DNA of 64,000 bases from an uncultured bacterium (GCA_963980215.1 CAXBYZ010000002.1:1726-65725); one strand, 5' to 3'. Numbered from the stretch's first letter, positions 4,564 to 54,763 are shown. The notes: a model not told the origin generated them from the sequence alone. Translations and numbers: made by a program.

Positions 4564-5661
4564 ATGAAACAACCAGTAATTTTAGCTATCGACACTTCCT
4601 GCGATGAAACCGCCGCCGCCGTTTCTCGTGGCCGTAAAATTCTTAGTAACGTCATCTCCTCTCAAATTAACATCCATAAAAAATGGGGCGGCGTCGTCCC
4701 TCATCTAGCTAAACGCGCTCATTTGGAAAAAATAAAACCAGTGGTAAATAAAGCTTTATTACAAGCAGGGTTCGGAACTTCAGCAATTGCGACTCCGACG
4801 AAAGTCGGAGCTAGTTCCGAACCTAAAAACCTTACCGGCATCGACGCCATCGCCGTCACCATCGGCCCCGGCTTAGCTCCGGCTCTAGAAGTAGGTCTGG
4901 CCTACGCCAAAAAACTCGCCCAAGAGCACCACAAACCCCTCATCGCTATCAACCACATGGAAGGCCACCTACTCTCTTCTCTCGCCCTACCCAACTCTCA
5001 CACACATACTGGTTCGGAACCAGTATGTGACTTCCCCACCATTGGCTTACTCGTCTCCGGTGGTCACACCCAACTAGTTTTAGTTAAAAAAATTGGCGAC
5101 TATCAGCTCTTGGGTGAAACCCTAGATGATGCCGGCGGCGAAGCTCTAGACAAACTAGCTAAAATGTTAAAACTAGGCTACCCCGGTGGCCCGATTGTGG
5201 AAGAACTAGCCAAAAAAGGTCTTCCTGGCACTATTTCCTTACCAGTGCCAATTCAACACTCCAAAGATTTTAACTTTAGTTTTAGTGGTTTAAAAACCGC
5301 TGCCCTCTACCAAATTCAAGCTCAAAAAAAAATCACCAAAACCTACACCTCCAACATGTGTTATTCCTTTCAACAAGCCATCACTATATCTTTAACTACC
5401 AAACTTACTCGAGCCATCAACCAATATCGTCCCAAAAGCATCTTGCTTGGTGGTGGTGTCTTTTCTAACATCTACATTAGAAGTCAAGTCAGACAAACCG
5501 TCAAAAAATTCAACTTACCCTTACACCTTCCCTACTCCAAAAAACTATTTACAGATAACGCCGCCATGATTGCCATTCCCGCCTACTACAAATTCATGCA
5601 AAAAGACTTTGCAAAAAATCTTGACACCCTCGACCGCCAACCTAGTCTAAATTTTAATTAA
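4564..5661 (+). CDS. tsaD: tRNA N6-adenosine threonylcarbamoyltransferase TsaD (Kae1/YgjD family)
   Basis: MKQPVILAIDTSCDETAAAV..., GVVPHLAKRAH, IAVTIGPGLAPALEVGL and the His pair (INHMEGH). The start is refined to the ATG at 4564. It contains two in-frame hairpin elements (4769-4823 and 5003-5029). Confidence 0.85.
   Translation: MKQPVILAIDTSCDETAAAVSRGRKILSNVISSQINIHKKWGGVVPHLAKRAHLEKIKPVVNKALLQAGFGTSAIATPTKVGASSEPKNLTGIDAIAVTIGPGLAPALEVGLAYAKKLAQEHHKPLIAINHMEGHLLSSLALPNSHTHTGSEPVCDFPTIGLLVSGGHTQLVLVKKIGDYQLLGETLDDAGGEALDKLAKMLKLGYPGGPIVEELAKKGLPGTISLPVPIQHSKDFNFSFSGLKTAALYQIQAQKKITKTYTSNMCYSFQQAITISLTTKLTRAINQYRPKSILLGGGVFSNIYIRSQVRQTVKKFNLPLHLPYSKKLFTDNAAMIAIPAYYKFMQKDFAKNLDTLDRQPSLNFN
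4769..4823. repeat. 55-bp composite hairpin element inside tsaD
   Basis: GGTTCGGAAC...GACTCCGACGAAAGTCGGAGC...GTTCCGAACC; a near-identical copy at 19503-19557. Confidence 0.8.
5003..5029. repeat. 27-bp perfect palindrome CACATACTGGTTCGGAACCAGTATGTG in frame inside tsaD
   Basis: Encodes HTGSEPVC; related copy at 54033-54057 in leuS. Confidence 0.8.
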
Positions 5662-6373
5662 ATGCCCACTCAATTTCATGGGTTTTTGGATCAACTCCAT
5701 GATCACGAATCCAATTAGCTATTTCCTCTATTGAAACCTCTTCTTGTGTCAAAACCAAAACTTTAATTTTTTTTCTGCCAACATATTCAATCTTATAATT
5801 TAATGATTCATAGGGTAAAAAATTCACCAAAGGATAATTTTCTTTTTGAAAATTATCTAGTTGTTCCATCCCAATCGATCTCAATTTTTCTTCCCCAGTA
5901 GTAATTTGCCAAACATAAATCAACTGATCACCCTTATATACCATTACCTCATACCATTGACCGGATTTTAATATCTCAAGAGGATAAAAACTCACACTCA
6001 TCTCTCCCTTATTTATCAATGTTTCTCCCAAAATCACCGGATTTAATTGAATATTCATCTTATCTAAATCAATTAATTGATCAAACATCACTCGAATCAC
6101 ATCCAATTTTCTGTTAACTGTCTCATCAGCACTCGGTTCAGTTCTCATAATTTTTACGCTCTCGCCTCTTTTAATAGCCACCTGATCACTTAATATTTTC
6201 CCTAACTCTTCTTCCCTCAACACATCATTAAGTCTAAGCCCAAACATCGATTTCATCTCCCCTTTACTAACCATTTCTTGCTGTCGTTTAACCACCACTC
6301 CACCCACTACCAACAATAAACAACCAATACTAATCCCACCAATAACTAACAAAAATTTATAATCAAGTTTCAT
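5654..6373 (-). CDS. Membrane-anchored hypothetical protein
   Basis: One N-terminal TM helix (FLLVIGGISIGCLLLVVGGVVV) followed by a soluble domain. No motifs recognised. Confidence 0.35.
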   Translation of the reverse strand: MKLDYKFLLVIGGISIGCLLLVVGGVVVKRQQEMVSKGEMKSMFGLRLNDVLREEELGKILSDQVAIKRGESVKIMRTEPSADETVNRKLDVIRVMFDQLIDLDKMNIQLNPVILGETLINKGEMSVSFYPLEILKSGQWYEVMVYKGDQLIYVWQITTGEEKLRSIGMEQLDNFQKENYPLVNFLPYESLNYKIEYVGRKKIKVLVLTQEEVSIEEIANWIRDHGVDPKTHEIEWAFN

Positions 6374-7807: not shown

Positions 7808-7861
7808 AGTTATATCCTATCAATACTTAGTCGAATTCTCAATGATATAATACTTCCAAAC

Positions 7862-7933: not shown

Positions 7934-7938
7934 CATCT

Positions 7939-7963
7939 ACATGAAGGTTCGTAACCTTCATGT
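7939..7963. repeat. 25-bp perfect hairpin element ACATGAAGGTTCGTAACCTTCATGT in the spacer between the two tRNAs
   Basis: An identical 25-mer recurs at 24160-24184. Confidence 0.8.
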
Positions 7964-7968
7964 ACCAT

Positions 7969-18437: not shown

Positions 18438-19667
18438 ATGACACCAAAATCCTGGCAGCTAAAACTTTTCTACCTCATCTTATTTTTAATTCCTTCCAAT
18501 CTCGCCAAACACTTCATCCTCCCTTCATCCTACGTCTCCGGCATCTTAGTTGACTACCTCATCCCTACTATTTATCTCACTGATATTCTTATCCTCACCC
18601 TCCTTGTTTGTAACAAAGGACTGTCCTTTGTTACAGTTGTTAAATCAAGCTTTTTTGTTTTCTTGCTCTGCTTACTCCCCTCAATCATTTTCGCCTCCTC
18701 CCCAATTCCAGCTATCTACAAGTACTTAAAACTCATAGAGCTAGTCTTATTTTCCCTCTGGGTCAAACAAAATATTAATCTAAAAAAACATCTACAACCC
18801 ATTATTACTATCCTTACCCTCTCTACCCTCTTTCAATCTCTCCTAGCCTTAACTCAATGGTTCAAACAATCATCGCTTTTTGGTTACTATTTTTTGGGCG
18901 AACAACCCTTTACCTCAGCTTCAGTTGGTATTGATAAAATCACTTGGTTCACTGGCGCTATCAAAATCCCCCCTATGGGCACCTTCCCTCACCCCAATGT
19001 TTTAGGAGGCTTTTTAGCCGTAGTTTTACCGCTTATCCTCTATAAGGGTCTTAATTCCAACACAAGGTTACGAACCTTGTGTTACACCTCATTTTTGCTC
19101 GGTCTCCTCACCCTTTTTCTCACCTTCTCTCTCTCCGCTTGGTTAGCCTTTCTCTTAATCGGCCTTCCCCTCACCCTAAAGAAAATATTTAAGGTTCGGA
19201 ACCTTAAATTTATCTTTATCTACTCAGGGCTTTTCTTAATCCTCTTTTCTTTTGCTACCAAATTTACCTTTCTTGCTCCCCAAAGCTCCTTTAGCCGTCG
19301 TTCTCAACTAACCCAGATTGCTCTCAAATCTTTTACCCACTCACCCATTGTTGGTGTTGGCCTTAATAACTTTACCATTAACATGGAACACTACGGCTAC
19401 ATCACTTCCACTACTCGTTTTCTCCAACCCGTCCATAACATCTTTCTTTTAATCCTCTCCGAAACCGGCCTCATCGGCCTTGCTGGCTTTCTTTATCTTT
19501 TAGGTTCAAAACTTCAGCAATTGCGACTCCGACAAAAGTCGGAGCAAGTTTTGAACCTAAAAATATTCTTAATCCCTCTCCTCACCCTCCTCTTCCTCGG
19601 CCTCTTCGATCACTACCCTTTTACCATCCAACAAAGTTTATTGCTACTCTTTACCCTAATTAACTAA
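18438..19667 (+). CDS. Polytopic membrane protein, O-antigen ligase/polymerase (Wzy)-like
   Basis: About 10 predicted TM helices and a central loop, lying in a glycan locus. It carries four in-frame palindromic elements (18610, 19063, 19185, 19503). Confidence 0.4.
   Translation: MTPKSWQLKLFYLILFLIPSNLAKHFILPSSYVSGILVDYLIPTIYLTDILILTLLVCNKGLSFVTVVKSSFFVFLLCLLPSIIFASSPIPAIYKYLKLIELVLFSLWVKQNINLKKHLQPIITILTLSTLFQSLLALTQWFKQSSLFGYYFLGEQPFTSASVGIDKITWFTGAIKIPPMGTFPHPNVLGGFLAVVLPLILYKGLNSNTRLRTLCYTSFLLGLLTLFLTFSLSAWLAFLLIGLPLTLKKIFKVRNLKFIFIYSGLFLILFSFATKFTFLAPQSSFSRRSQLTQIALKSFTHSPIVGVGLNNFTINMEHYGYITSTTRFLQPVHNIFLLILSETGLIGLAGFLYLLGSKLQQLRLRQKSEQVLNLKIFLIPLLTLLFLGLFDHYPFTIQQSLLLLFTLIN
18610..18634. 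repeat. REP copy (GTAACAAAGGACTGTCCTTTGTTAC) in frame inside the Wzy-like gene
   Basis: Reverse-complement-centre version of the RAYT-flanking REP; it encodes CNKGLSFVT. Confidence 0.8.
19503..19557. repeat. 55-bp composite hairpin element inside the Wzy-like gene
   Basis: A copy of the 4769-4823 element with about 6 substitutions. Confidence 0.8.
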
Positions 19668-20966: not shown

Positions 20967-22712
20967 TCACATCTTTTCCGGCGCCTCTATTCCCAACATC
21001 CCCAAACCTCTCTTTAATATCTCCCCGGTTACTTTAGTCAACCACAATCTAAAATTCTTTTGCTCTTCACTCTCCGCTTTTAATATCGAGCACTTATTGT
21101 AAAAACTATTATATTTTTGGGCCAAATCATACAAGTAATTAGCTACCAAATTAGGCGCCAACTCCTCCGCCGCTTCTATAACCACTTCCTCAAACCGATA
21201 CAAACTTCTCAACACTACTTTCTCCTCCTCTTTCAAATTTTCCAGGTTCGGAACCTGGAATTTACTATCGGACTTGAGTAGTACCGACTGAGTCCGGGCA
21301 TAAGTATACTGCAAATACGGCCCCGAGTTCCCCTGCAAACTCACCGCTTCTTCCATATCGAAATTAATCTTCACCCCTGGTCCAACCTTTAAAAACGAGT
21401 ACTTCACCGCTCCCACTCCAATCATTTCCGCCGTTTTTTCGTCCACTTTATAACTAGCTTGAACTTTTTTTACCGCCTCATCCAGCAACCACCAACCAGT
21501 CACCACTCTTCCGGTTCTCGAGGACATCTTACCACCCTTTAAATCCACCAACTCATAAACCCGATGGTACTGCTTATCTTTAAACATCTTTGGATCTAGC
21601 AATTCTTCTACCTTAAAAGTCACCTCAAAAAAACTCCTCTGTTCCGGACCCACTACATGAATACACTTATCAATCTCCCCAAAATCACTAAACTCTTGTG
21701 GCGCCAAACCCAACTCCTTGGCTTCATAAGTTGCCAAGCCAATACTATTAATAAACACCCTAGTATCCAAACCATACTGAGATCCGTCAAACACCACTGC
21801 CCCTTCACTTTTCTTTAATATTCCCCTCTCCAAGGCTTTCTTTGCAATCTTTAAACCCTCACCACACTCCGACTCAAAATATAGTTTATCGTACTTAGTT
21901 CCCACCCGTTTATAAATCAGTTCAAAGTACTCCAAACTCCAATTTCTGGTCTCCTGATAAATCTCAATCACCTCCCCCTCTCCTTTACCTTCATAAATCT
22001 CTTGATTAATCTTAATAATCTCAATCTTGACTTTTTCATGCTTTTCGTAAGCCGTTGCCCCCTTAGCATAAGCCTTCCCCAAAAACTCAATTCTCTCTAA
22101 AATTGACTTACTTTTAACTAGATTGAACTCTTTTGATATAGATAAAATCCCCCACAAGGCTTTAGCAATATGAAGACCCACGTCACCTTGATAATTGACT
22201 CGTATTACCTTGATTCCCACCGCTTCAAGCAATCTGGTGATCGACTCTCCCAAGGAGATATTCCTCAAATGGCCAATGTGAAACTGTTTATGAGTGTTGG
22301 GGTGAGCATACTCCACCATCACTTTTTCACCCCACTTAGTCTTACTTTTAAACTTACCCTCTAGCACTCTTTCAGCTTCTTTGATAAGGGCATCCTCTTG
22401 GATTGATATATTAATAAATCCTGGTCCAGCAACTTCAATTTTTTTAACCAATTTCTTTGACATTTGTTCGTGTAATCTCTCAACAACCTTCTCTGCTAAC
22501 TCTCGAGGTGACCTCGGTTCCGAACTCACACCTCCAAGGTGGTGTTGCGCCTGCGGCTCACCTTGAAGGTGTGACCAAATCACCATCGCCACATTACAAG
22601 CAAAATCCCCATGAGTCATGTCTTCAGGATGCTCCACTTCAAACTCAACTTTTTCTAGCCCCATTTGACTAACTACTTCTTGGATTTGTTTTTTAATTTT
22701 ATCTTTTAGCAT
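20967..22712 (-). CDS. argS: Arginine--tRNA ligase
   Basis: The class I HIGH motif (FHIGHLRN), a KMSS-like motif (GGKMSSRTG) and a C-terminal DALR anticodon-binding region. It contains in-frame elements at 21241 and 22527. Confidence 0.9.
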   Translation of the reverse strand: MLKDKIKKQIQEVVSQMGLEKVEFEVEHPEDMTHGDFACNVAMVIWSHLQGEPQAQHHLGGVSSEPRSPRELAEKVVERLHEQMSKKLVKKIEVAGPGFINISIQEDALIKEAERVLEGKFKSKTKWGEKVMVEYAHPNTHKQFHIGHLRNISLGESITRLLEAVGIKVIRVNYQGDVGLHIAKALWGILSISKEFNLVKSKSILERIEFLGKAYAKGATAYEKHEKVKIEIIKINQEIYEGKGEGEVIEIYQETRNWSLEYFELIYKRVGTKYDKLYFESECGEGLKIAKKALERGILKKSEGAVVFDGSQYGLDTRVFINSIGLATYEAKELGLAPQEFSDFGEIDKCIHVVGPEQRSFFEVTFKVEELLDPKMFKDKQYHRVYELVDLKGGKMSSRTGRVVTGWWLLDEAVKKVQASYKVDEKTAEMIGVGAVKYSFLKVGPGVKINFDMEEAVSLQGNSGPYLQYTYARTQSVLLKSDSKFQVPNLENLKEEEKVVLRSLYRFEEVVIEAAEELAPNLVANYLYDLAQKYNSFYNKCSILKAESEEQKNFRLWLTKVTGEILKRGLGMLGIEAPEKM

Positions 22713-24122: not shown

Positions 24123-24159
24123 AAATATATTCTACTCCACCCGCATCAAAATTTCCACA

Positions 24160-24184
24160 TGAAGGTTCGTAACCTTCATGTAAG
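24160..24184. repeat. 25-bp hairpin element ACATGAAGGTTCGTAACCTTCATGT (second copy)
   Basis: Identical to 7939-7963; intergenic. Confidence 0.8.
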
Positions 24185-24244
24185 AATCTCACTACTCTGG
24201 AGTGGCACTTGATGACTCTCCGGAGTGGACTATATACTACCCTT

Positions 24245-25675
24245 ATGAAAATAGTCATCGGCTACCCCCCCTTAGAATCCAAAAAAGGCACCGCCCTTCT
24301 TTCTCAAAATCGCCAGTTCCAGTGGTTTTCTTCTCCCACCTACATCTATCCCGTCATTCCCGCCTCAACAGCCACTCTTTTAGCAAAAAACGGTCACCAA
24401 GTTCTCTGGCTCGACGGCATTGCCGAAAACTGGACCTACCAACAATGGTTAAAACAACTCAAAGACTTCAAACCCGACCTTTTGTTCATGGAATCCAAAA
24501 CCCCAGTCATTAAGGCTCACTGGAAAATCATCAAAGATCTCAAACGCAAGGTTCCGAACCTTAAATGTGTCTTGGTCGGTGACCATGTTACCGCCTTACC
24601 CAAAGAGTCCTTCAAACACTCGCCCGTCGACTTTGTTATCTCTGGTGGCAACTACGACCTCGCTTTACTCGATCTCGTAACCAAACTCAAAAACAAAAAG
24701 AAAGTCACTCCAATCACTTATGCCCCTTCAAACTACAACCTCACCAAGCTTCCTTTCATCGATCGAAAGCTAACCAAGTGGCACCTCTACGCCTCCAAAA
24801 ACGGTAACTTCAAGTACTTCCCCGGTACCTACACTATGGCCGGTCGGGATTGCTGGTGGCGCCAAAATGGTGGCTGTACTTTTTGTTCCTGGACCACCTT
24901 GTATCCCCAATTTTCCTCCCGCACGCCAACAAATCTCCTAGACGAAATTGGTCAATTGATCAAGATTGGAGTCAAAGAAGTTTTTGACGACACCGGCACT
25001 TTTCCCATCGGTGATTGGTTAACCAAGTTTTGTCAAGGCATGGTCAAACTCGGCTACCACAAACAAATCACTTTCGGGTGCAACATGCGTTACGGAGTTT
25101 TAACCAAAAAAGACTATACATTAATGGCCAAAGCTAACTTTCGCTTCATCCTCTACGGCCTTGAATCGGTAAACCCCAAAACCATCAAACGTTTAAACAA
25201 AGGCACCAAGCCTTCAAAAATCAAAGCCGAGCTTGAAGTTATCAAGCAAGTAAATCAGGAATTAAAAGGTCATCTAGAACCCCACGTTACTTGCATGATT
25301 GGCTATCCATGGGAAAGCTATCAGGACGCCCAAAACACCGTCAACTACACTAAATCTCTCTTCAAAAAAGGCCTCATCGACTCTCTCCAAGCCACCATCT
25401 GCATTCCCTATCCAGGCACCAAACTCTACAGCCAATGTCAAAAAAATCACTGGCTCAAAACCACCAACTACAACCACTACGACATGCGTCAACCAATCAT
25501 GAAAACCAAGATAAAAAACCAAGACCTACTCAAACTCACCAGAAACATCTACACCTCCTGTCTCACTCCAAAGTTCATCCTAAAAAAACTTTTTTCTATC
25601 AGAAACTTCAACGACCTCAAATGGTTCTACAACGCTAGCTTTAAAGTCCTCGCTCACTTACTAGATTTTTCATGA
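24245..25675 (+). CDS. B12-binding-domain radical SAM protein
   Basis: An N-terminal cobalamin-binding-like Rossmann segment (VLWLDGIAE...KCVLVGDHVTALP) followed by a Cys cluster (CWWRQNGGCTFC) and a TIM-barrel-length remainder. The start is refined to the ATG at 24245. Confidence 0.5.
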   Translation: MKIVIGYPPLESKKGTALLSQNRQFQWFSSPTYIYPVIPASTATLLAKNGHQVLWLDGIAENWTYQQWLKQLKDFKPDLLFMESKTPVIKAHWKIIKDLKRKVPNLKCVLVGDHVTALPKESFKHSPVDFVISGGNYDLALLDLVTKLKNKKKVTPITYAPSNYNLTKLPFIDRKLTKWHLYASKNGNFKYFPGTYTMAGRDCWWRQNGGCTFCSWTTLYPQFSSRTPTNLLDEIGQLIKIGVKEVFDDTGTFPIGDWLTKFCQGMVKLGYHKQITFGCNMRYGVLTKKDYTLMAKANFRFILYGLESVNPKTIKRLNKGTKPSKIKAELEVIKQVNQELKGHLEPHVTCMIGYPWESYQDAQNTVNYTKSLFKKGLIDSLQATICIPYPGTKLYSQCQKNHWLKTTNYNHYDMRQPIMKTKIKNQDLLKLTRNIYTSCLTPKFILKKLFSIRNFNDLKWFYNASFKVLAHLLDFS

Positions 25676-26487
25676 CTCACTCCATTGCCACTATTATCAA
25701 TTTTTGTAGTAACGACAAACTTTTTATCCACCACACTATCAACCAAGTTAAAAAATTCTCAAGCCAAATAATTATTCCTTACTGCGACCACTTCTACGAC
25801 GGCACTCCTGAAGATCAAAGCTTAATCTCTAAAACCATTGCAAAACACCCCACAGTTAAATTCATCCCCTTTCAATACGACCCCAATGCCACCAAAACTT
25901 TATGGCGCGGTTGGCAATTTATCTTACGCCGCCTCACCAAAACCCAAGTCTGGGGACCCCAACACTGGATCTGTCATGCCCGTTTACTAGGAACTACTTA
26001 CCTCAAAAAAAACATCAAATACGTCCTCTTTTTAGACGCCGACGAAGTCCCCGATGGCAAACGCTTTAAAGGTTGGCTAGACACCAAAAACTACCAAAAA
26101 TATAATGCCATAAAGTCTGCTAATTACTGGTACTTTAGATCACCCAAACACCAAGCCACTACCTTTGAAGACTCAAGCTTATTAGTCAAAAGAACTTCTT
26201 TAACTCAAGCCGTCTTCATGGATCACGATGAACGAAACGCTACCTACAACTCCATCCCTCACCCCAAAAAAAGAATGGTTTTAGGTTTAGACAGTAAACC
26301 CATGATCCACCACTACGGCTGGGCTAAACCCAAAGCCAATCTCCTTAAAAAAGTCAAAACCTGGGGGCACTCCAAAGACCGAAATTGGACCAAGTTAATC
26401 GAAAAAGAGTTTCAAAAACCTTTCTCCGGCACAGACTTTATCTACCACCGTCGCTTCACCACCGTCAAACCTTTCCTTCACTTGTAA
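25672..26487 (+). CDS. Hypothetical protein, possibly a glycosyltransferase (DxD-like LFLDADE)
   Basis: Its stop codon lies inside the upstream REP. Confidence 0.3.
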   Translation: MTHSIATIINFCSNDKLFIHHTINQVKKFSSQIIIPYCDHFYDGTPEDQSLISKTIAKHPTVKFIPFQYDPNATKTLWRGWQFILRRLTKTQVWGPQHWICHARLLGTTYLKKNIKYVLFLDADEVPDGKRFKGWLDTKNYQKYNAIKSANYWYFRSPKHQATTFEDSSLLVKRTSLTQAVFMDHDERNATYNSIPHPKKRMVLGLDSKPMIHHYGWAKPKANLLKKVKTWGHSKDRNWTKLIEKEFQKPFSGTDFIYHRRFTTVKPFLHL

Positions 26488-26508
26488 CAAAGGACAGTCC
26501 TTTGTTAC
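26484..26508. repeat. REP, 25-bp perfect palindrome GTAACAAAGGACAGTCCTTTGTTAC (5' flank of the RAYT gene)
   Basis: It is identical to the copy at 27165-27189. It contains the stop codon of the upstream gene and ends 9 nt before the RAYT start codon. Confidence 0.85.
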
Positions 26509-26517
26509 AATAATAAT

Positions 26518-27168
26518 ATGCCTTCCAAAAACGAACTTAAACAATACCTAAAAAATGGTTACTATCATATATACAATCGTGGGGTTGATAAAAGAATCAT
26601 TTATAAAGATGAGCAAGACTACGGTGTCTTTTTAAACTTCCTAAAATATTACCTATCTTCCCTTCCAAAACTAAATCCACTTAGAAAAATAACAATTAGA
26701 GAAAGTAAAACGTATCAAATTAGCGATTACAAATGCAAAAACTATCACCAAGCCGTCACTTTACTCGCCTACTGCCTAATGCCCAACCACTTTCATTTAC
26801 TCATCAAACAAACTGAATCCAGAAATATTGAATCTTTCATGAAATCTATTGGCACCAGATACTCAATGTACTTTAACAAACGCTATCAAAGATCTGGCCA
26901 CCTCTTCCAGGGTAGATACAATGCCGTCTTGGTTGATTCCGACGAACAACTCATTCATCTTTCTCGCTACATTCATTTAAATCCCTCTCCAAATCTTTTT
27001 AAGCAGCCTTCTAGCTATCCTGATTATCTCAACCAAAAAAACACCCCATGGCTTCAGAAGCAAGATGTCACTCAACACTTCAAAAATTCACTTGCTTACA
27101 AAAAATTCGTCCAAACTCCCGACCAATCCGCCCTCTCAATCCTCTCCAAACTCACCCTAGATTCGTAA
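26518..27168 (+). CDS. REP-associated tyrosine transposase (RAYT / TnpA-REP, IS200-like HUH Y1 transposase)
   Basis: YHIYNRG, AYCLMPNHFHLL (the HuH motif) and RYSMYFNKRYQRSGHLFQGRYNAVLVDSDEQLIHLSRYIHLNP (catalytic Tyr region). It is collinear with E. coli RAYT motifs and flanked on both sides by the palindromic REP. Confidence 0.85.
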   Translation: MPSKNELKQYLKNGYYHIYNRGVDKRIIYKDEQDYGVFLNFLKYYLSSLPKLNPLRKITIRESKTYQISDYKCKNYHQAVTLLAYCLMPNHFHLLIKQTESRNIESFMKSIGTRYSMYFNKRYQRSGHLFQGRYNAVLVDSDEQLIHLSRYIHLNPSPNLFKQPSSYPDYLNQKNTPWLQKQDVTQHFKNSLAYKKFVQTPDQSALSILSKLTLDS

Positions 27169-27189
27169 CAAAGGACAGTCCTTTGTTAC
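27165..27189. repeat. REP, 25-bp palindrome (3' flank of the RAYT gene)
   Basis: Identical to 26484-26508; overlaps the RAYT stop codon. Confidence 0.85.
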
Positions 27190-31584: not shown

Positions 31585-32636
31585 ACCAACTCCTCAAACA
31601 TCTCCTCATAATTTTTAGCTATCCTCTCCCAACCAAACCTCTCCAACCACCTCTCTCTTTCCCGCCTCTGTGTAACAAAGGTCCGACCTTTGTTACAAGC
31701 CTGCTCCAATTTTTTTGAGTACTCCTCACCCCAAACATCTTTCACATAAATTCCAAACTCTCCCAACAACTCCCGACGAAGCTCATCATCAGTCACTACC
31801 ATTGGTAATCCACTTGCCAAGGCTTCCAAATTCACAATCCCAAACTCCTCTGTACTCTCTGATACCATCGTAAATACGTCACACGCTCTATACACCTGAT
31901 CCAAATCTTTGTACTCCACTTTCATTCTCAAAAACCTCTTACCTAATAATCGTTTCCCCAACTTCTCCATCTCATCACTCCCACCAACCAGCAACAAACT
32001 AGCTTCCTTAACTTTGACCATCGCTTTTATCGTCGCCTCCACTCGCTTATACCTATCCGGCCCAGCCACACACAAAACTACTGCCTTAGTCTCGCGACGA
32101 AGCTTTTCCAGAGATTCACTTTTCAACCTCTTTCCCTCCGGACTAAATCTTTTCAAATCCACTCCATGAGGAGCAATCTCAATCTTTACTCCCTTACTAT
32201 ATTTTCTAGCCCACTTAGCGTTTCGCTTGGTTGAAGCCACAAACACATCCGGTCGCATCAATAAGTTCCAGCGATCACACCAACCCAAACCAGCCAATCC
32301 CGGAATTACCAACTTTATCCCCGTTAACCAACTATACAATCGGCAAAGCAAACTCTGCCAACCCCCATTCACCGGAATTAAAAAATCTACCTCACCAACT
32401 TTTTTCAACGCTTTCACCGTAAACCAAAAAATCTTCAAGTGATAATAATCCAGCATCAACATTCTCCAACTATTCCCTTTAGTCATCTTTTCCCAATCTA
32501 CTTTCATTCCCAAACTCTCTGCACTTATCACCTGAACTTCATGTCTCTTTTTCCATTCTTGCTCCAACTCCCTCACCACCGTTTCCACTCCTCGGCTAAT
32601 CTGTCCGCTAGTAAAACTTAAAACCGCTATCTTCAT
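31581..32636 (-). CDS. GT4 (GT-B) glycosyltransferase
   Basis: The C-terminal E...FGIVNLEALASGLPMVVTD signature of GT4 enzymes. Confidence 0.65.
   Translation of the reverse strand: MKIAVLSFTSGQISRGVETVVRELEQEWKKRHEVQVISAESLGMKVDWEKMTKGNSWRMLMLDYYHLKIFWFTVKALKKVGEVDFLIPVNGGWQSLLCRLYSWLTGIKLVIPGLAGLGWCDRWNLLMRPDVFVASTKRNAKWARKYSKGVKIEIAPHGVDLKRFSPEGKRLKSESLEKLRRETKAVVLCVAGPDRYKRVEATIKAMVKVKEASLLLVGGSDEMEKLGKRLLGKRFLRMKVEYKDLDQVYRACDVFTMVSESTEEFGIVNLEALASGLPMVVTDDELRRELLGEFGIYVKDVWGEEYSKKLEQACNKGRTFVTQRRERERWLERFGWERIAKNYEEMFEELV
31672..31696. repeat. REP variant (GTAACAAAGGTCCGACCTTTGTTAC) in frame inside the GT4 gene
   Basis: Same arms, different centre; encodes CNKGRTFVT. Confidence 0.7.
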
Positions 32637-33652
32637 ATCCTATAGTTAGTCAAGGTTCGTAACCTTGAGTAAATAACTGCCTTTGAATATATAAATACCA
32701 TACTAACACACACCAGCGGATGCCAGAACCAAGCAATATCTGGCTTAGATATATATCCAAAAAAAGACTCCAGTATCGGCCCAATAAAAGTTATAGAGTA
32801 AATACAATATCCAATTACTTTAATCACATCCTTAAAATCTCGCACCCAAACAAAACGCCGAATCTTCCTTTGCTCCAAGTAAAGCTTGGTCATGTACTTA
32901 TAACGCTTCCTTAGTGACTTTAAAAAGCTCTCACCAGTGTCGTGAACAATCGTATTTTTCACCACTCCAAACTTATCTTCTCCCATACTAACCAAGTCCC
33001 AAAACACATCTATATGCGAAAAATTCTTCTCACTTACCTTCGCTTTCATTAGCTTCTCCCGCCACACCAAAACTCCGTTATCTCCCAAAGTTGGCATGCT
33101 ATCTTTACTAAACTTCACTCTCCACCAACTTCCTTTATCCTCCACTCTGCCCGCCAACCTCCATTTCTCACTCCCCCAACTTTGACGGTCAGCTCGACCC
33201 ATAAACTTGGCCACCGGATCGTTAGCTCCCATCAAGGCATAGTAGCGATTCAAGCTAGTGTCGGTTTTTCTCACTTCATACCGCCAGGGATAAACTGCCA
33301 CTAACTTAGGCTCACTTTCAAGCACCTTAACCATCTTTGATAGCCAATCTTTAGTTGGCAGTACATTATCACTAGCTATCAATAAAATCAGCTCGCCCTT
33401 TGCCTGCCTTAAACCAGTTGCTTTAGCAGATTCGGGATTACCAGTCTTCTCGCTCACCACTTTACAACCATACTTCTTCAACACTTCCACCGTCCCATCA
33501 TCAGATCCACCATCGGCCACTATTATCTCTACCTCACCCACATAATCTTGCTCCCTCACAATCTTCAAACAGGCCTCAACCGTTCTAATACTATTAAACG
33601 TCGGCATCACCACACTAATAGATCTCATATCTACATAGTATACTATTCCCAA
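32633..33652 (-). CDS. GT2-family glycosyltransferase
   Basis: ISVVMPTFNSIRTVEACL and the GGSDDGT motif. The 3' end contains an in-frame hairpin element (32640-32671). Confidence 0.65.
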   Translation of the reverse strand: MGIVYYVDMRSISVVMPTFNSIRTVEACLKIVREQDYVGEVEIIVADGGSDDGTVEVLKKYGCKVVSEKTGNPESAKATGLRQAKGELILLIASDNVLPTKDWLSKMVKVLESEPKLVAVYPWRYEVRKTDTSLNRYYALMGANDPVAKFMGRADRQSWGSEKWRLAGRVEDKGSWWRVKFSKDSMPTLGDNGVLVWREKLMKAKVSEKNFSHIDVFWDLVSMGEDKFGVVKNTIVHDTGESFLKSLRKRYKYMTKLYLEQRKIRRFVWVRDFKDVIKVIGYCIYSITFIGPILESFFGYISKPDIAWFWHPLVCVSMVFIYSKAVIYSRLRTLTNYRI

Positions 33653-36890: not shown

Positions 36891-37035
36891 ATAAGTATAT
36901 GATACGAAATACTTATCAAAATGTCAACCCACAACCTTCAACCCTATAGTCAGTCAAGGTTCGTAACCTTGAGTTCTTCCCCCTGACAGGGACTGTCCCT
37001 GTCAACCTACAAGGATCATCCTTGTAGGCTACAAT

Positions 37036-40654: not shown

Positions 40655-41639
40655 TCAAGGAAAGGGTTCCGAACTTCAAAGTAATAGGGTTCCGAACCTC
40701 CAGCGGTCTGCAGCGTCAGCGAAAGACGGTTCGGAACCTTCAACGTTTGCCATCATCATCCCCTGTAAATCCCTAAAAGACCTTTGCCCCGAGCTCCTCC
40801 CGGCCCTAAAAACCCAATCTCTCCCTCCCGCCAAAATCATTATCATTCCTGACTCCCTTAACCATGTTAACAAAGGAGACTCCTTTGTTAAAGTTTTACC
40901 CAAGGCTGGCGACCCCGCCACCAAGCGCGACTATGCTGTTAAACACCTCAAGAAAACAGTAGGAACGGTTCCTACTGTTTTAGCCTTTATCGACTCGGAT
41001 GCCTACCCGGATAAAAACTGGCTTAAGAATGCTACTAAACACTTGAAACCAAAAAACATCGCCGCCGTCTGCGGGCCGGGCCTCACCCCACCCCAAAACT
41101 CCAAACTTCAAAAACTCTCCGGCCTCATTTGGTCCAGCTTTATTGGCGCTGGCCCTTACCGCTTCCGAAACCGCCCTTTAAAACCCCGCTTCGTCGACGA
41201 CTACCCCACCTTCAACCTCCTCGTCAAAACCAAAGACTTTCAAAAAATCGGTGGCTTTGACACCAAGTACTGGCCCGGTGAAGACACCAAGCTTTGCCTC
41301 GATCTCACCCACCAACTCCATAAAAAAATTCTCTATCACCCATCTATCATCGTCTTTCATCATCGCCGTCCCCTTTGGCTCCCTCACCTTCAGCAACTCT
41401 CCCGCTACGGCTTTCAACGCGGTCGATTTGTTAAACTTTTCCCCCAAACCTCCCGTCGCTTCTCTTACTTTTTACCCCTGCTATTTCTTCTCTCCCTACC
41501 CCTAACTTGGCCTTTCTATCTCGCCACTATCTTACTCACCGGCATCTATCATCAATCCCTTCTCCTGCCCCAAGCCCTACTCTTAACCCACCTCACCTAC
41601 GCTATCTACTTTCTCAAAGGCCTTCTAACAAACTCTTGA
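40647..41639 (+). CDS. GT2-like glycosyltransferase with C-terminal TM helices; its N-terminus is built from tandem hairpin elements
   Basis: FAIIIPC start motif, FIDSDAYP (DxD) and WPGEDTKLC. The first ~35 codons are three GGTTCCGAACC-type elements (40667-40747). It also contains a REP variant (40866). Confidence 0.5.
   Translation: MTSQGKGSELQSNRVPNLQRSAASAKDGSEPSTFAIIIPCKSLKDLCPELLPALKTQSLPPAKIIIIPDSLNHVNKGDSFVKVLPKAGDPATKRDYAVKHLKKTVGTVPTVLAFIDSDAYPDKNWLKNATKHLKPKNIAAVCGPGLTPPQNSKLQKLSGLIWSSFIGAGPYRFRNRPLKPRFVDDYPTFNLLVKTKDFQKIGGFDTKYWPGEDTKLCLDLTHQLHKKILYHPSIIVFHHRRPLWLPHLQQLSRYGFQRGRFVKLFPQTSRRFSYFLPLLFLLSLPLTWPFYLATILLTGIYHQSLLLPQALLLTHLTYAIYFLKGLLTNS
40866..40890. repeat. REP variant (GTTAACAAAGGAGACTCCTTTGTTAA) in frame inside the GT2 gene 40647-41639
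   Basis: Encodes VNKGDSFVK. Confidence 0.6.
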
Positions 41640-45125: not shown

Positions 45126-45983
45126 TCATTTTATCCACCACTTTTCACCAGTACTAACTAACCTCACCAAACCATCTTCATCAGTCCGCTTAATCATCGC
45201 TCCCAGCTCTCTCAATCTCTCCAGCACTTCCCTAGTTGGGTGCCCAAATCGATTTTTGCCTACCGAAATCACTGCCAACTCCGGCTTCACTGCTAAAAGA
45301 AACTCCCCACTTGTACTAGTTTTGGATCCATGATGAGCTACTTTTAACACTTCTACGTCTGTTAGTTTATCAGTTAACCTCAACTCATCCTCTATCTTTG
45401 TATCAATATCTCCGGTTAACAAAAACTCAAATTTCCCATAGCTTCCCCTCAACACCGTCGACACTTCATTAATATCTTTAATCTCACACACCTCGGAGGT
45501 GATCTCAATCGGATACAGCACCTCTAAACTCACCTCTCCCAACCTCACCCCATCCCCAGCCTTAAATTCGAGGTTCGTAACCTCGAATTTTTCCATCACC
45601 CGCTTCAACTCCCTTACCTCAGCAATGTCATTCTCCACTCCACTCATATAAAAATTCTCTACCTCATATCTCTTCAAAACCTCGATCATCCCTGTCATAT
45701 GATCTGCTTGAGGATGAGTCACTACCACCAACTCTATCTTTCTATCCCAAAAAGGCATACTCTTCCCCAAACAAGACAAAACCGAACTATCCGGACCCCC
45801 ATCTACCAACATCTGATAACTTCCCCAAGACACTAAAGTTGCATCTCCTTGACCTACATCACAAAAAGATAACTCTAATCTCTTTTTTGGCAACTGAAAA
45901 GCCACCAAAACCAACAAAAATAACAGCAACACCAAACTAAAATTAATCTGTTTTAATAAATTTTTCTTCTCAATCTCATCCAT
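45126..45983 (-). CDS. ComEC/Rec2 metallo-beta-lactamase domain protein (ComEC C-terminal module as a separate gene)
   Basis: An N-terminal TM anchor, then MLVDGGPD and VVTHPQADH (the MBL HxHxDH motif), then VAHHGSKTS. Confidence 0.6.
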   Translation of the reverse strand: MDEIEKKNLLKQINFSLVLLLFLLVLVAFQLPKKRLELSFCDVGQGDATLVSWGSYQMLVDGGPDSSVLSCLGKSMPFWDRKIELVVVTHPQADHMTGMIEVLKRYEVENFYMSGVENDIAEVRELKRVMEKFEVTNLEFKAGDGVRLGEVSLEVLYPIEITSEVCEIKDINEVSTVLRGSYGKFEFLLTGDIDTKIEDELRLTDKLTDVEVLKVAHHGSKTSTSGEFLLAVKPELAVISVGKNRFGHPTREVLERLRELGAMIKRTDEDGLVRLVSTGEKWWIK

Positions 45984-50373: not shown

Positions 50374-51099
50374 CAACACACCACCATATAATCAAACAGC
50401 TCCCCTAATCTCTCCCTCTCATTCAACGGCACAAACACCTAATCCCCCACACCCTCCCTCACAAAATAAAATTTACCAAAATGTACTACATCTTAGCAAA
50501 TTTATTTGACAAAATGTATATTTATCCAATCATCCTCACATCTTCTACCTCTCTTTAGGCACAACACCCATAAAAGATCTATTTTCAGTTGTCAAAATTC
50601 TTGGTTTAAGTAAGTTATTGTATTGCTAAAAACACGATTTTAGGTTGTAATATCAGGTAAAAAAGGAGAACCTTTATTGGTCTTTCCACCTTAGTGAAAG
50701 CTACTCAGCCTTGGAGTCTGATCTGGTTAAATTGATTGAATTATTAGAGGGAAAGGGAAACTACCCGGTAAGGGCCGTCAGTGATTGGAAAGGAGTGAAA
50801 GACTCTCCTACCAAAAAGAAGCCCGCCACAAACAAACTAATTAATCACAGAGGCATGAAACCACAACAACAAATATCTTTTCTTCGTTGGTACTTTACCT
50901 TTAGTCGGGTTAAAAACAAGCAAGATCTGAGAAAACTATGGGTCTATTGGAAAGCCGTCAATAATTCTGTTTAGCAACACAAAAGGTTACTTAAACTAAA
51001 GTTCCGAACCTTCCTCTAAAATCTCTTTACTACAGGACGTAGATTATTAAGTCTCAATTCAAGTTTCTATAGACTATAGCAGTTAAAATTCCCGGTAAT

Positions 51100-52143: not shown

Positions 52144-52276
52144 CCTATTGCTCAACTACCCCCCTCCAACTTCTTCTCCAAATACACCACAATATAATCA
52201 AACAACTCAACACATATTTACAGATGACACATTCCACCTATTTTAGGTGGTTTGTATCACCGTATTACCAGCCAAA

Positions 52277-54763
52277 TTACCCCACCACCAAATTCACCAA
52301 TTTCCCCGGCACAAAAATCTCTTTCACAATCTTTTTATCCCCCACAAACTTCTTGACCGCCTCTACTTCTCTAGCTAACTTCAACACCTTCTCTTTATCC
52401 CCGCTCTCCTCTTTACTTATCTCCAGTTGTCCCCTTAATTTACCATTCACCTGGACCACTACAGTCACTTGATCCGACTCAATCAACTTAGCATCATACT
52501 TTGGCCACAACTGCTGATGAATTGAACCTTCACCCCCTAGTTTTGCCCAAACTTCTTCGCTCATGTACGGCGCCATTGGGGCCAATAACTTCACCAGTCT
52601 CATCCCATCCTCACTACTTAAAACCTCCCCCTTCTCCCGCCACACATTCACACACTCCATCATTGAAGCTATAGCTGTGTTATAACTAAATCTCTCCATA
52701 TCCTCGCCCACTTTTTTAATGGTTTGCTCTAATTTTTTTAGTAACTTCTCACTGGTTTTAACCCCCATTTTTCCCTCAAACAAGAGCCACAATCTGTTCA
52801 AAAACTTGCTTATTCCCACCATCCCCGTATCTCGAAAATCCCCACCTTGTTTATAAGGCCCAATAAACATCAAGTACATCCGCAAAGCATCGGCCCCATA
52901 CCTACTCAAGTACTCATCCGGATTGACAATATTACCTTTACTCTTACTCATCTTAGTACCGTCTTTAATAATCAAACCATGACCAAACAAAAATGGGAAC
53001 GGCTCTTCAAAATCAATCATCCCCCAATCTTTTAACGCCATAGTTACAAACCGTGCATACATCAAGTGTAAAACCGCATGTTCGGCTCCGCCAATATAGG
53101 CATCCACCGGTAGCCACTTCTTGACGATTTCATCGTCAAACGGCCATTTCTCCATCACACTCCCGGAGTGTGAACTTCTTTCACTCCGGGAGTGTAAAAT
53201 ACTCGGATACCTTAAAAAATACCAACTGCTGTCCAAAAAAGTGTCAGATACATCCGTCTCCCTCTTAGCTTTACCACCACACTTAGGACAGTCAGTATAT
53301 AACCAGCTCTCGTCCGCCTTCTCCAAAGGTGACTTGCCATCCCCGGTCGGCTTGTAATCTTGTACCTCCGGCAACCTCACCGGCAAGTTCTCCAACTTCT
53401 CGGGCACAAAACCACACTTCTCACACTCGATCATCGGAATCGGTGGCCCCCAGTAACGCTGACGCGAAATACACCAATCCCGCAATCGGTAGCTCACCAC
53501 CCGTTTCCCCCAACCTTTTTCCTCAAAATAATCCATTATCTTTTCTGTTGCCTTGTGAATATCCATTCCATCCAAAAACTCAGAGTTTATCATCGTCCCC
53601 TCATCCTCTTGGACCTGCTCCACCTTAGTTATCTCACTCTTATCACCATCACTAGCCACTACCACCCTAATCACCTCTAAATTAAACTCTTTTGCAAACT
53701 CAAAGTCCCGCTCATCGTGCCCCGGTACTCCGACTACCGCCCCGGTTCCCACATGGCCCAAAACAAAATCTGTCACAAAAATCGGCATCTCTCGACCAGT
53801 TAAATCATTAATCGCCACCAATCCGGTATCCACTCCCGTCTTCTTTTTCCCTTCGGCAATCCTATCTATCTCACTCTTCTTTAATGCCTTCTTCACATAC
53901 TCTTCCACCGCTTTTTTATCTTTCACTTTAATTTCACCAGCAATCATCTTCTTGACCAACTCATGCTCGGGTCCCACCACCACAAACGTCGCCCCAAAAT
54001 TCGTATCCGGCCTAGTCGTAAAACATTTCACACACACTGGTTCCGAACCAGTGTGTAAACCTTTAATTTGGTATGATATATCAACCCCTGTCTTCCTCCC
54101 AATCCAGTTCTTCTGGGCAATCTTGATCTTCTCTGGCCAATCAATCTTGTCAATGTTATCCAGTAATCTCTGAGCGTACTCGGTAATCTTAAAAAACCAC
54201 TGAAACGTTTCCTTTTTGGTCGTCTCGGTCTTGCACCGCTCACACTGCCCTGCTTCCACTTGCTCATCGGACAGCACTGTCATACATGACGGACACCAAT
54301 TCACCAAGGATTTTTTTCGATAAGCCAACCCCTTCTCAAACATCTTCACAAACAACCACTGGGTCCACTTGTAATACTCCGGATCGTAAGTTTCCAGTCG
54401 ATTATCCCAAGAAAACCGATTACCAATTTTTAACAACTGCTCGTAAAAATGTTTCTGGCTAATCTTGGCCTGTTCCGCCGGGTGCTTACCAATCTTAATG
54501 GCATAGTTCTCGCTGTGTATCCCAAAGCCATCCAAACCAATCGGCTCAAACACATCGTACCCTTGCATCGCCTTAAACCGCCCATAAAAATCCGCCCCGG
54601 TAAAGGCATACATGTTACCTACATGAAGTCCCTCAGCACTAGGATAGGGAAACATCATTAGGTTATAAAAAGGCTTCTTAGCTTTATCTAAATCCACCTT
54701 ATACGTCCCCTGTTCTCGCCAGGTTTTATTCCACTTCTCCTCAATTTTTTTATGATCAAAACT
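52277..54763 (-). CDS. leuS: Leucine--tRNA ligase
   Basis: HVGNMYAF (the HIGH region), KMSKSKGN (KMSKS), a CP1 editing region and FTTRPDT. The start is refined to MSFDHKKIEEKW. It contains the in-frame element at 54033-54057. Confidence 0.9.
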   Translation of the reverse strand, partial: SFDHKKIEEKWNKTWREQGTYKVDLDKAKKPFYNLMMFPYPSAEGLHVGNMYAFTGADFYGRFKAMQGYDVFEPIGLDGFGIHSENYAIKIGKHPAEQAKISQKHFYEQLLKIGNRFSWDNRLETYDPEYYKWTQWLFVKMFEKGLAYRKKSLVNWCPSCMTVLSDEQVEAGQCERCKTETTKKETFQWFFKITEYAQRLLDNIDKIDWPEKIKIAQKNWIGRKTGVDISYQIKGLHTGSEPVCVKCFTTRPDTNFGATFVVVGPEHELVKKMIAGEIKVKDKKAVEEYVKKALKKSEIDRIAEGKKKTGVDTGLVAINDLTGREMPIFVTDFVLGHVGTGAVVGVPGHDERDFEFAKEFNLEVIRVVVASDGDKSEITKVEQVQEDEGTMINSEFLDGMDIHKATEKIMDYFEEKGWGKRVVSYRLRDWCISRQRYWGPPIPMIECEKCGFVPEKLENLPVRLPEVQDYKPTGDGKSPLEKADESWLYTDCPKCGGKAKRETDVSDTFLDSSWYFLRYPSILHSRSERSSHSGSVMEKWPFDDEIVKKWLPVDAYIGGAEHAVLHLMYARFVTMALKDWGMIDFEEPFPFLFGHGLIIKDGTKMSKSKGNIVNPDEYLSRYGADALRMYLMFIGPYKQGGDFRDTGMVGISKFLNRLWLLFEGKMGVKTSEKLLKKLEQTIKKVGEDMERFSYNTAIASMMECVNVWREKGEVLSSEDGMRLVKLLAPMAPYMSEEVWAKLGGEGSIHQQLWPKYDAKLIESDQVTVVVQVNGKLRGQLEISKEESGDKEKVLKLAREVEAVKKFVGDKKIVKEIFVPGKLVNLVVG
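54033..54057. repeat. 25-bp palindrome ACACACTGGTTCCGAACCAGTGTGT in frame inside leuS
   Basis: Encodes the same HTGSEPVC peptide on either strand. Confidence 0.8.

Follow-up and report, generated by a model that had tools for sequence, protein, structure and literature searches.

The 64,000-nucleotide stretch analyzed here (GCA_963980215.1, CAXBYZ010000002.1:1726-65725, called the window, at its full length) comes from an uncultured bacterium. Among others, it carries the genes of TsaD, leucyl-tRNA synthetase (LeuRS) and arginyl-tRNA synthetase (ArgRS), a gene with a Wzy_C domain, a B12-binding/radical SAM gene, glycosyltransferase genes (GT2 and GT1), a gene with a metallo-beta-lactamase (MBL) fold adjoining ComEC, and one gene for a Y1 (HUH) transposase. 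The identities that a preliminary description had given to TsaD, LeuRS, ArgRS, B12/radical SAM, Wzy_C, GT2 and the MBL-fold gene were confirmed with Pfam. Dispersed through the window, mostly inside genes, are short hairpins built around the cores GGTTCSGAACC or GGTTCGTAACC. They are very probably repeats of the repetitive extragenic palindromic (REP) type, the cognate substrates of Y1 transposases of single-stranded DNA that resemble the REP-associated tyrosine transposases (RAYTs).

The GGTTCSGAACC core has seven exact copies in the window where dinucleotide-preserving shuffles predict 0.04, and GGTTCGTAACC, both orientations counted, has six where 0.02 would be expected. Pooled, this gives 13 exact cores where about 0.06 would be expected, and with one mismatch or none the count rose to 19 in 64 kb against 0.45 expected. 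An inverted-repeat census of the window returned 18 palindromes with at least 11 paired positions and 30 with at least nine, whereas first-order Markov simulations (n = 40) yielded on average 0.55 (maximum 2) and 7.65 palindromes, respectively. The GGTTC..GAACC hairpins are thus confirmed as real, and the recurrence claimed in the preliminary description lies far above the expectation from base composition, in shuffles and simulations alike. The density of exact cores, about two per 10 kb, was the same in the window and its relatives, and no exact core was present in 1.29 Mb of LeuRS loci from other bacteria.

Nineteen of the 25 hairpins in the window lie within open reading frames (ORFs) backed by Pfam or homologs, and none of the 19 contains a stop codon. 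The commonest length is 27 nt (nine codons), with further elements of 15, 21, 51 and 57 nt and a few of 23, 25 or 29 nt, in which the outermost pair is ambiguous. Within ORFs the GGTTC core is read as GSEP, V-x-N, LRT or FGT, and all four intragenic copies of a second family, REP-A (GTAACAAAGGACNGTCC) and REP-A-like, are read in one frame, giving CNKGxSFVT or VNKGDSFVK. The stems fall into discrete subfamilies, which recur at unrelated, non-orthologous sites in different genomes. Such a pattern is that of copies of a mobile family and would not be expected for hairpins grown locally.

Judged from its sequence, the window derives from a Microgenomates bacterium of the Candidate Phyla Radiation (CPR) related to Beckwithbacteria; the closest named LeuRS relatives are those of Candidatus Beckwithbacteria (67-68% identity). 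The organism occurs in groundwater samples, e.g., ERZ4200985 and SRR3724645. The plus strand of the window holds 12.4% G and 28.7% C, and in no 4-kb block does the GC skew leave the range of -0.27 to -0.54. Concentrated at third codon positions, the bias takes opposite signs for genes on the two strands, which marks it as a mutational bias of the strand and not as a coding bias. The skew was common to all five relatives retrieved via ArgRS. Extreme G/C strand disparity is known from the order UBA1400 of the Microgenomates (Ca. Chazhemtobacterium, Collierbacteria and Beckwithbacteria), with 14.97% G and 29.83% C in the published Ch65 genome (PMC7143001); the disparity of the window is more extreme than that of Ch65. 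A bisulfite-like or other conversion artifact was considered as the source of the G depletion and rejected, as the base totals do not fit it, the third-position bias flips with the coding strand, and the disparity has been published for the lineage. Within this extremely strand-biased genome the hairpins are perfectly G/C-balanced.

Transposase Genes Bracketed by Hairpins

The RAYT-like Y1/HUH transposase gene of the window (26518..27168, + strand, 216 aa) encodes the HUH motif in NHFHLL and the catalytic tyrosine in RYIHLNP, both of which were kept in alignments of 32 and of 44 homologs. Its product matched Pfam Y1_Tnp with an E-value of 8e-13. An AlphaFold2 model calculated from the alignment of 44 database homologs reached a predicted local distance difference test (pLDDT) score of 87, whereas a single-sequence model (pLDDT 33) was unusable and was set aside. 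The top Foldseek match of the predicted model in the PDB was 4ER8, the RAYT-REP complex of E. coli (E 1e-4, template modeling score 0.62 normalized to the target), and the transposases of IS608 and ISDra2 ranked after it; a phmmer search against PDB sequences returned no match. The gene is bracketed at both ends by REP-A hairpins, of which TTGTAACAAAGGACAGTCCTTTGTTACAA (26482..26510) ends 7 nt before the start codon and GTAACAAAGGACAGTCCTTTGTTAC (27165..27189) overlaps the stop codon.

The GGTTC-cored hairpins flank another branch of the same family. In L090, a syntenic relative with an ArgRS 67% identical to that of the window, a paralogous RAYT (40% identical to the window RAYT) is bracketed by ATAGAATAGGTTCGTAACCTATTCTAT and a flipped copy of ATAGAATAGGTTCGTAACCTATTCTAT. 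A metagenome scan with both RAYTs as queries returned 80 loci, with hairpins at both gene ends in 40 and at one end in 22. All seven loci nearest to the L090 RAYT (48-100% identity) had GGTTCGTAACC or GGTTCSGAACC cores if L102, with the one-mismatch variant AGTTCGTAACT, is included, and hairpins of this type were found on the flanks of the RAYT genes in L090 and L095-L102. Six of the seven (L096 to L101) have a third hairpin copy within the RAYT gene itself, in frame, approximately 230 nt from the 5' flanking copy and in a variable loop of the protein (L096 2110, L097 6198, L098 4046, L099 2851, L100 6192, L101 6210). An internal copy was found neither in the REP-A-type RAYT of the window nor in that of L095. 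RAYT and REP are paired in the same arrangement in weakly skewed Microgenomates contigs too, and RAYT homologs number in the thousands, many of them on very short contigs.

Three hairpins of the window could be matched to the flanks of particular RAYT genes. The RAYT gene in L097 has on its 5' side a near-identical copy of the perfect 27-nt hairpin CACATACTGGTTCGGAACCAGTATGTG in tsaD (5003..5029). The 15-nt palindrome AAGGTTCCGAACCTT in the B12-binding/radical SAM gene (24548..24562, peptide KVPNL) recurs unchanged as the 5' flank of the L099 RAYT gene. The 27-nt hairpin ATATTTAAGGTTCGGAACCTTAAATTT in the Wzy_C gene (19185..19211, peptide IFKVRNLKF) belongs to the subfamily ATTTAAGGTTCCGAACCTTAAAT, copies of which lie on either side of the RAYT genes in L098 and L100 and also inside both. 

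L095 and L097 are located on one 68-kb contig (Ga0233431_1000717), and their two paralogous RAYTs, 58% identical, are each flanked by their own stem variant of the GGTTCGTAACC hairpin. Comparison of these sequences suggests that RAYT paralogs and hairpin subfamilies diversify together. The existence of several RAYT paralogs, each with its own hairpin family, would account for the coexistence of several families in one window. The preliminary description had placed these families beyond the single REP family; by their position next to a RAYT-like Y1 clade in related genomes they are themselves several REP families, each tied to a RAYT paralog.

Hairpins in TsaD, LeuRS and ArgRS

Besides the hairpin at 5003..5029, translated as (S)HTHTGSEPVC, tsaD contains a composite, REPIN-like element of 57 nt (4768..4824), in which GGGTTCGGAACT and AGTTCCGAACCT enclose a 33-nt spacer with a hairpin of its own. 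It encodes the peptide GFGTSAIATPTKVGASSEP, folds with -30.4 kcal/mol (RNA parameters) and is absent from the L094 TsaD and from the solved TsaD 8iey. At the 5003 site the window, L090 and L094 each carry a different hairpin, that of L090 being from another subfamily and with a flipped core. Two further composite inserts in TsaD are each present in one genome and absent from another, as with a composite insert of 20 residues in the L090 TsaD that both the window and L094 lack. Doublets of the form GGTTCGGAACT-N33-AGTTCCGAACC, 57 nt long and folding into long hairpins, occur in tsaD of the window, twice in tsaD of L090, and in leuS of L099. Both TsaD inserts of the window are gaps in the alignment to 8iey, and, more generally, the hairpin inserts coincide with gaps or variable loops when the proteins are aligned to solved or distant homologs. 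The listed start of the tsaD ORF (4402) lies 54 codons upstream of the conserved MKQPVILAIDTSCDET start of relatives, and the N-terminal extension (4402-4563) is probably untranslated. An exact-sequence look-up of this ORF found no record, probably because its start at 4402 was set too far upstream.

In leuS the 25-nt hairpin ACACACTGGTTCCGAACCAGTGTGT (54032..54056) stands directly before the FTTRPDT motif and is read as LHTGSEPVCV. The occurrence of HTGSEPVC in both TsaD and LeuRS was verified together with its explanation, as the palindrome reads alike on both strands; the two copies differ by one compensated, synonymous pair. Approximately 13 of the 28 clade members are empty at the LeuRS site and read IKGLKE-TVTCFTTRPDT. 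The occupied sites hold HTGSEPVC in the window, KGSEPLC in P0125, a flipped core (GYEP) in P0123 and another frame (KVRNL) in P0136. Longer inserts are present in P0122, P0124, P0126, P0138 and L099, the last being a 57-nt composite at the DNA level. LeuRS proteins of other phyla (n = 80) showed only ordinary length variation at this position, and relatives drawn from a GTDB scan as an outgroup (42-54% identity) were unusable for empty-site tests. A second variable site in leuS (53141..53200) contains two palindromes of the CACTCCSGGAGTG type, encodes RSERSSHSGSVMEK and is empty in P0123, P0129, P0132, P0133, P0139 and P0141.

The 21-nt hairpin TTCCAGGTTCGGAACCTGGAA of argS (21240..21260, peptide FQVPNLE) lies in a variable region that follows the QSVL motif, close to where the Pfam DALR_1 match begins. 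At this site four genomes show four variants in one frame, with stems that differ and still remain self-complementary and with one core flipped; L092 and L091 carry other subfamilies and L090 a decayed copy. In the N-terminal part of argS, a variable insert (22509..22583, - strand) includes the degenerate core GGTTCCGAACT at 22516-22526 (peptide VSSEPRS); one to three tandem cores are present in L090, L091 and L092, and the insert is absent in P0007 and P0008.

Presence and absence could be followed in other genes as well. The GT2 gene of L090 has a clean 27-nt insert that its window ortholog does not have. The REP-A copy in the methyltransferase gene of the window (29132..29158, peptide CNKGQSFVT) is missing from the L090 ortholog. 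No target duplication was evident around the 27-nt insertion of L090, though the flanks are too diverged for certainty. Insert peptides named for the elements of the window comprise HTGSEPVC, CNKGLSFVT and FGTSAIATPTKVGASSEP. Hence the earlier statement that small, lineage-specific palindromic elements sit in frame within genes, essential ones included, stood up in view of the empty LeuRS sites, the TsaD gaps and the differences between orthologs. Among essential genes it holds for TsaD, LeuRS and ArgRS; the in-frame ArgRS copy, called an insertion in the preliminary description, brings no net insertion relative to close relatives. A phmmer search with a 30-residue segment around the 19-residue FGT...SSEP module against 1.84 billion representatives gave three weak matches to unrelated repetitive proteins, the query being too short to gauge the spread of the module.

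Origin and Known Relatives of the Repeats

We infer the following route from sequence comparisons. A RAYT would bind its own hairpin in single-stranded DNA, cut beside it, and copy or move it to other locations, frequently within or next to hairpins already there. With scarcely any intergenic space in this genome of roughly 1 Mb, most insertions would land in genes. Selection would then retain only frame-preserving, stop-free insertions in tolerant surface loops. Transposition of the IS200/IS605 Y1 type involves neither terminal inverted repeats nor target duplication; without a target duplication a 27-nt unit would be frame-neutral automatically. Owing to palindromy the encoded peptides would not depend on orientation, so that an insertion in either direction would give the same few peptides (GSEP, V-x-N, FGT/LRT and, for REP-A, CNKGxSFVT). 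The visible outcome is that loops of the essential enzymes TsaD, LeuRS and ArgRS have gained presumably translated, lineage-specific segments of 5 to 20 residues, with elements turning over repeatedly at a small number of shared sites.

Several observations weigh against regarding the hairpins as REP-type substrates of RAYTs. The only RAYT in the window is of the REP-A type, and the nearest GGTTC-type RAYT was found in L099, a relative with 81% nucleotide identity in leuS. The best NCBIfam model for the window transposase, REP_Tyr_transpos, scored 50 bits, below its cut-off of 80 (IS200 was much weaker), and the sole PDB match by sequence profile was a marginal one to ISDra2 TnpA (E 0.009). 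No conserved GTAG/CGTC tag was present in the 20 RAYT-proximal copies or the window copies inspected, and with at least nine stems among 13 copies the basal stems are much more variable than in classical REP families. At the LeuRS site the length has changed by a net 5 codons (15 nt) and not by 9 (27 nt). The ArgRS segment of the window adds no length to that of relatives and is among the shortest, the site being occupied in all four related genomes examined; the compensated stem changes there could reflect an old insertion, with selection or repair keeping the arms paired, and not repeated insertion. Nine strain-level contigs of the same organism (L081-L089, 99.9% identity, about 22 kb) showed no element gained or lost, and any current activity of the hairpins is low, judging from them.

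An alternative, that the hairpins are ends or solo-end remnants of autonomous insertion sequences of the IS200/IS605 type, in which Y1 gene and hairpins jump as a selfish unit and not as a domesticated, single-copy REP/RAYT system, is in our opinion unlikely. It would agree with the tight bracketing of Y1 genes by their own hairpins, the presence of two paralogs on one 68-kb contig (L095, L097), the thousands of homologs, many on very short contigs, as repeated insertion sequences would be, and the ISDra2 TnpA match. Against it, the window holds at least 25 hairpins for one transposase gene, both flanks are the same palindrome with no distinct left and right ends, RAYT is the best match in both family and fold, and no TnpB partner turned up among the scanned ORFs. 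Moreover, the RAYTs on the common contig are 58% identical and have different cognate stems, which makes them old paralogs and not recent copies of an insertion sequence. Still less probable are immobile functional RNA or DNA structures (elements of mRNA stability or processing, pause or protein-binding sites), with arms kept paired by selection and the link to RAYTs incidental. The occupation of orthologous sites across genomes at 67-77% ArgRS identity with compensated stem changes, the single compensated, synonymous difference between the TsaD and LeuRS copies, and the hairpin placed exactly between two tRNA genes could be understood in this way. Identical subfamilies at non-orthologous sites across genomes, clean presence/absence differences with many empty sites, and single sites with differing frames, orientations and element classes speak against it; the hairpins are systematically paired with Y1 transposase genes, they have no Rfam match, and their host genes are unrelated and share no common position.

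We consider it very improbable that the palindromes were made or perfected in place through template switching (fold-back synthesis or quasi-palindrome correction) during asymmetric replication, with a seed, e.g., GGTTCGGAACC, copying its own flank. Such a process would suit the highly diverse stems around a constant core, the ArgRS copy without added length, the LeuRS change of 15 nt in place of 27 nt, and hairpins that stay G/C-balanced despite the extreme strand bias, a bias suggestive of long exposure of single-stranded DNA (PMC7143001). Against it stand the discrete stem subfamilies, which recur across genomes at sites unrelated to one another and agree with the flanks of particular RAYT paralogs, a pattern that the copying of local flanks would not yield. 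Also, the 27-nt insertion has a complete stem without a source in the neighboring sequence, and RAYT and REP pairs built alike exist in Microgenomates contigs in which the skew is slight.

REPs, REPINs and RAYTs are established (PMC2817692, PMC3116915, PMC3479197), and the elements described here share much with the REP/REPIN-RAYT systems of Proteobacteria, such as E. coli TnpA_REP (4ER8, the best structural match) and the REPINs of Pseudomonas: short hairpins in many copies, a Y1/HUH gene bracketed by its cognate hairpins, several RAYT paralogs with a family each, and REPIN-like doublets making long hairpins. They differ in their host (CPR/Microgenomates), in the lack of a GTAG/CGTC tag, and in size, with units of 15-27 nt and doublets of 51-57 nt in place of REPINs of approximately 100 nt. 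Their stems are far more diverse around the constant apical core than those of classical REPs; 19 of 25 copies are intragenic, whereas REPINs are said to be almost exclusively extragenic; the RAYT genes of the GGTTC clade carry their own hairpin in frame, and the window RAYT stays below the curated cut-off. We do not assign the elements strictly to the GTAG or CGTC REP superfamilies. No paper linking RAYTs with the CPR was found in the literature library searched.

Intragenic REPs have been described in Opitutus terrae, in Rickettsia conorii (RPE-4 and RPE-6), in tRNA synthetase genes of Xanthomonas and in others (Di Nocera et al. 2013, PMC3733652). Like the hairpins of the window, they lie in coding regions, add roughly 10 to 30 residues, form dimers and clusters, choose housekeeping hosts including tRNA synthetases, and may differ from one another at about the same site of an ortholog (recB of Xanthomonas). 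Unlike here, however, intragenic copies are a minority among them, most being intergenic, and GTAG/CGTC tags are present; the reuse of sites is far wider in our set, involving three enzymes and multiple subfamilies, frames and orientations. The preliminary description had recognized no catalogued repeat family, which remains valid for the sequence family and not for the kind of element, since REP/REPIN-RAYT systems and intragenic REPs are on record (PMC3733652).

Other small repeats and mobile elements offer partial parallels. The protein encoded by the window gene is of the Y1 HUH type, as in IS200/IS605 elements (IS608, ISDra2; PDB 2A6O, 2XM3), whose enzymes recognize subterminal hairpins on single-stranded DNA and gave the second-best structural matches of the window transposase. 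The hairpin alone is the abundant unit here, the gene carries one and the same palindrome on either side, no tnpB turned up among the scanned ORFs, and the Y1 protein has about 216 residues with a C-terminal extension in contrast to about 130-155. Rickettsia palindromic elements (RPEs) were reportedly described by Ogata et al. 2000 as in-frame residents of protein-coding genes, essential ones included, in a reduced genome. They resemble our elements as palindromic in-frame inserts in essential genes (here TsaD, LeuRS, ArgRS and others), and RPE inserts presumably lie at the protein surface. RPE-1, however, is about 100-150 bp long, whereas the elements here measure 15-57 nt and are paired with RAYTs, and the likeness is one of description. 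We know of no dedicated transposase for RPE-1. The small dispersed repeats (SDRs) of heterocyst-forming cyanobacteria, hairpin repeats of approximately 20-30 nt, were reportedly described by Elhai et al. 2008; they too may sit in genes or in one another and replace each other at orthologous positions, in a different host phylum and with different sequences. To our knowledge, no cognate transposase of SDRs has been established. RPEs are also mentioned in PMC1779305 and PMC3733652, and as REPs, RAYTs, intragenic REPs and RPEs are all established, no new class of element is present here.

A more speculative extension, to which we give limited credence, is that the REP/RAYT systems in the ultra-small, gene-dense genomes of UBA1400 moved their habitat from intergenic to coding DNA, with hairpins that became compatible with translation and turn over in permissive loops. 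The commonest length of 27 nt, the freedom from stops in most frames and the loop-suited peptides rich in Gly, Ser, Pro and Asn may reflect such a shift. The hairpins may then act as a built-in generator of loop variation for essential enzymes, and their spread may have been favored by the long-lived single-stranded state behind the G/C strand disparity.

In the usual view, CPR bacteria are streamlined and have little mobile DNA. The window presents the opposite, with dense transposase-associated hairpins mainly inside genes and with three enzymes of the translation apparatus among the hosts. With them, REP/RAYT biology reaches a phylum and a niche, the coding sequence, that are both new to it, and many of the lineage-specific loop insertions that complicate the alignment, annotation and structure prediction of CPR proteins find an explanation. 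The fragmented assemblies of these organisms, in which many RAYT homologs reside on very short contigs, may be explained in part. Two questions become testable now: the tolerance of loops in essential enzymes to insertions, and a link of single-stranded DNA transposases to the proposed unidirectional or asymmetric replication.

Remaining Elements and Neighboring Genes

The copies listed in the preliminary description had been located correctly within 0-4 bases. Positions in tsaD (5003-5029), the radical SAM gene (24548-24562), the Wzy_C gene (19185-19211) and the MBL gene (45564-45590) were exact; those in leuS (54032-54056), the Wzy_C gene (19059-19083) and an intergenic region (24157-24181) were shifted by 1, 4 and 3 bases, and the ends were adjusted in argS (21240-21260), GT2 (32639-32672), the tRNA spacer (7938-7964) and a second intergenic region (36943-36974). 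The composite at 4768-4824, a cluster at 40665/40688/40728, and degenerate cores at 1714, 22516 and 51000 were added to that list.

The 27-nt hairpin TACATGAAGGTTCGTAACCTTCATGTA (7938..7964) fills the 34-nt spacer between the genes of tRNA-Arg(CCT) and tRNA-Pro(CGG). Its inner 25 nt are identical to the hairpin ACATGAAGGTTCGTAACCTTCATGT (24157..24181) between a PaaX-like gene and the radical SAM gene, which bears out the two identical 25-mers noticed before. The same PaaX-like/radical SAM spacer carries CACATGCTGGTTCGGAACCAGTATGTG in L091, and palindrome scans of it in L090 and L092 revealed no GGTTC-cored hairpin. In the latter two an unrelated palindrome, TTACTACGATCGTAGTAA, was seen (L092 2508-2525, L090 8575-8596) where the window spacer (24123-24208) has the REP hairpin instead; it may be a putative operator for the PaaX-like regulator.

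Further GGTTC-type copies comprise a second hairpin in the Wzy_C gene, AACACAAGGTTACGAACCTTGTGTT (19059..19083, 25 nt), with a flipped core and the peptide TRLRTLC, and the 27-nt hairpin AAATTCGAGGTTCGTAACCTCGAATTT (45564..45590, peptide KFEVTNLEF) in the MBL-fold gene adjoining ComEC, whose subfamily is also represented in the L092 ArgRS gene and in L090 (position 4502). The element CCTATAGTTAGTCAAGGTTCGTAACCTTGAGTAA (32639..32672) encodes the last approximately 13 residues at the 3' end of a GT2 gene, and its paralog CCTATAGTCAGTCAAGGTTCGTAACCTTGAGT (36943..36974), of the same subfamily, is intergenic. At the junction of two GT2 genes a cluster of three cores (40665..40738) includes a 51-nt long-hairpin doublet made by the cores 40688 and 40728 (40688-40738, -24.8 kcal/mol); with the downstream GT2 matching Pfam only from residue 36 on, these cores may lie between the genes or in an N-terminal extension. 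The degenerate core GGTTCCGAACT recurs at 1714..1724 in the Sua5/TsaE gene, within a region that is an indel between orthologs, and AGTTCCGAACC lies between ORFs at 51000..51010.

The REP-A family has another copy in the Wzy_C gene (18609..18635, peptide CNKGLSFVT), and REP-A-like copies are TGTAACAAAGGTCCGACCTTTGTTACA in the GT1 gene (31671..31697, CNKGRTFVT) and TTAACAAAGGAGACTCCTTTGTTAA in a GT2 gene (40867..40891, VNKGDSFVK). Two hairpins represent other families: AACCTACAAGGATCATCCTTGTAGGCT (37004..37030, intergenic), resembling RAYT-flanking hairpins of L139 and L144, and AAAACAGTAGGAACGGTTCCTACTGTTTT (40953..40981) in a GT2 gene, with a related copy at 734-768 of L092. The palindrome at 31671, like that at 37004, resembles flanks of other RAYT clades.

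A loose TTCCA or TCC motif stands 5' of some hairpin copies only. The asymmetric CGT and ACG cores were oriented 16 to 7 relative to the C-rich strand in a hand count too weak to interpret. At Rfam gathering thresholds two tRNAs and no hairpin family were matched in the window. Each element is a single hairpin without terminal inverted repeats, and the transposase is Y1 and not DDE, which sets them apart from miniature inverted-repeat transposable elements. A scan of viral contigs with AAGGTTCGTAACCTT gave single matches in many unrelated contigs, the chance level for a 15-mer, and no link to phages. The core was also compared by eye with the T arm of tRNA (GGTTCGAATCC against GGTTCGTAACC); mimicry was rejected, as the base at position 58 is other than A and the copies are paired throughout.

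The preliminary description had also counted atpD (56260-57678, - strand) among the genes with an insertion, and this claim had to be withdrawn: the gene has no core even at one mismatch and no palindrome with arms of at least 9. The ATP synthase beta subunit of the window presumably has about 18-24 extra residues compared with canonical sequences (57112-57183, - strand), and its Pfam domain match is about 20 residues longer than the profile. No hairpin or core was detectable in this segment, which may represent a decayed element or have nothing to do with the hairpins.

Two adjacent ORFs (45126-45983 and 46069-47319), and not a single one, encode the Competence domain of ComEC and the MBL-fold domain, the MBL ORF being that with the 27-nt hairpin. 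Two paralogous AAA_14/DUF4143 ATPase genes were noted (43932-45110 and 54857-56017), one of which adjoins leuS. Three large ORFs had no significant Pfam match, those at 13973-16690 (905 aa), 17087-18337 (416 aa) and 25672-26487 (271 aa); the last is kept beside the radical SAM gene in relatives.

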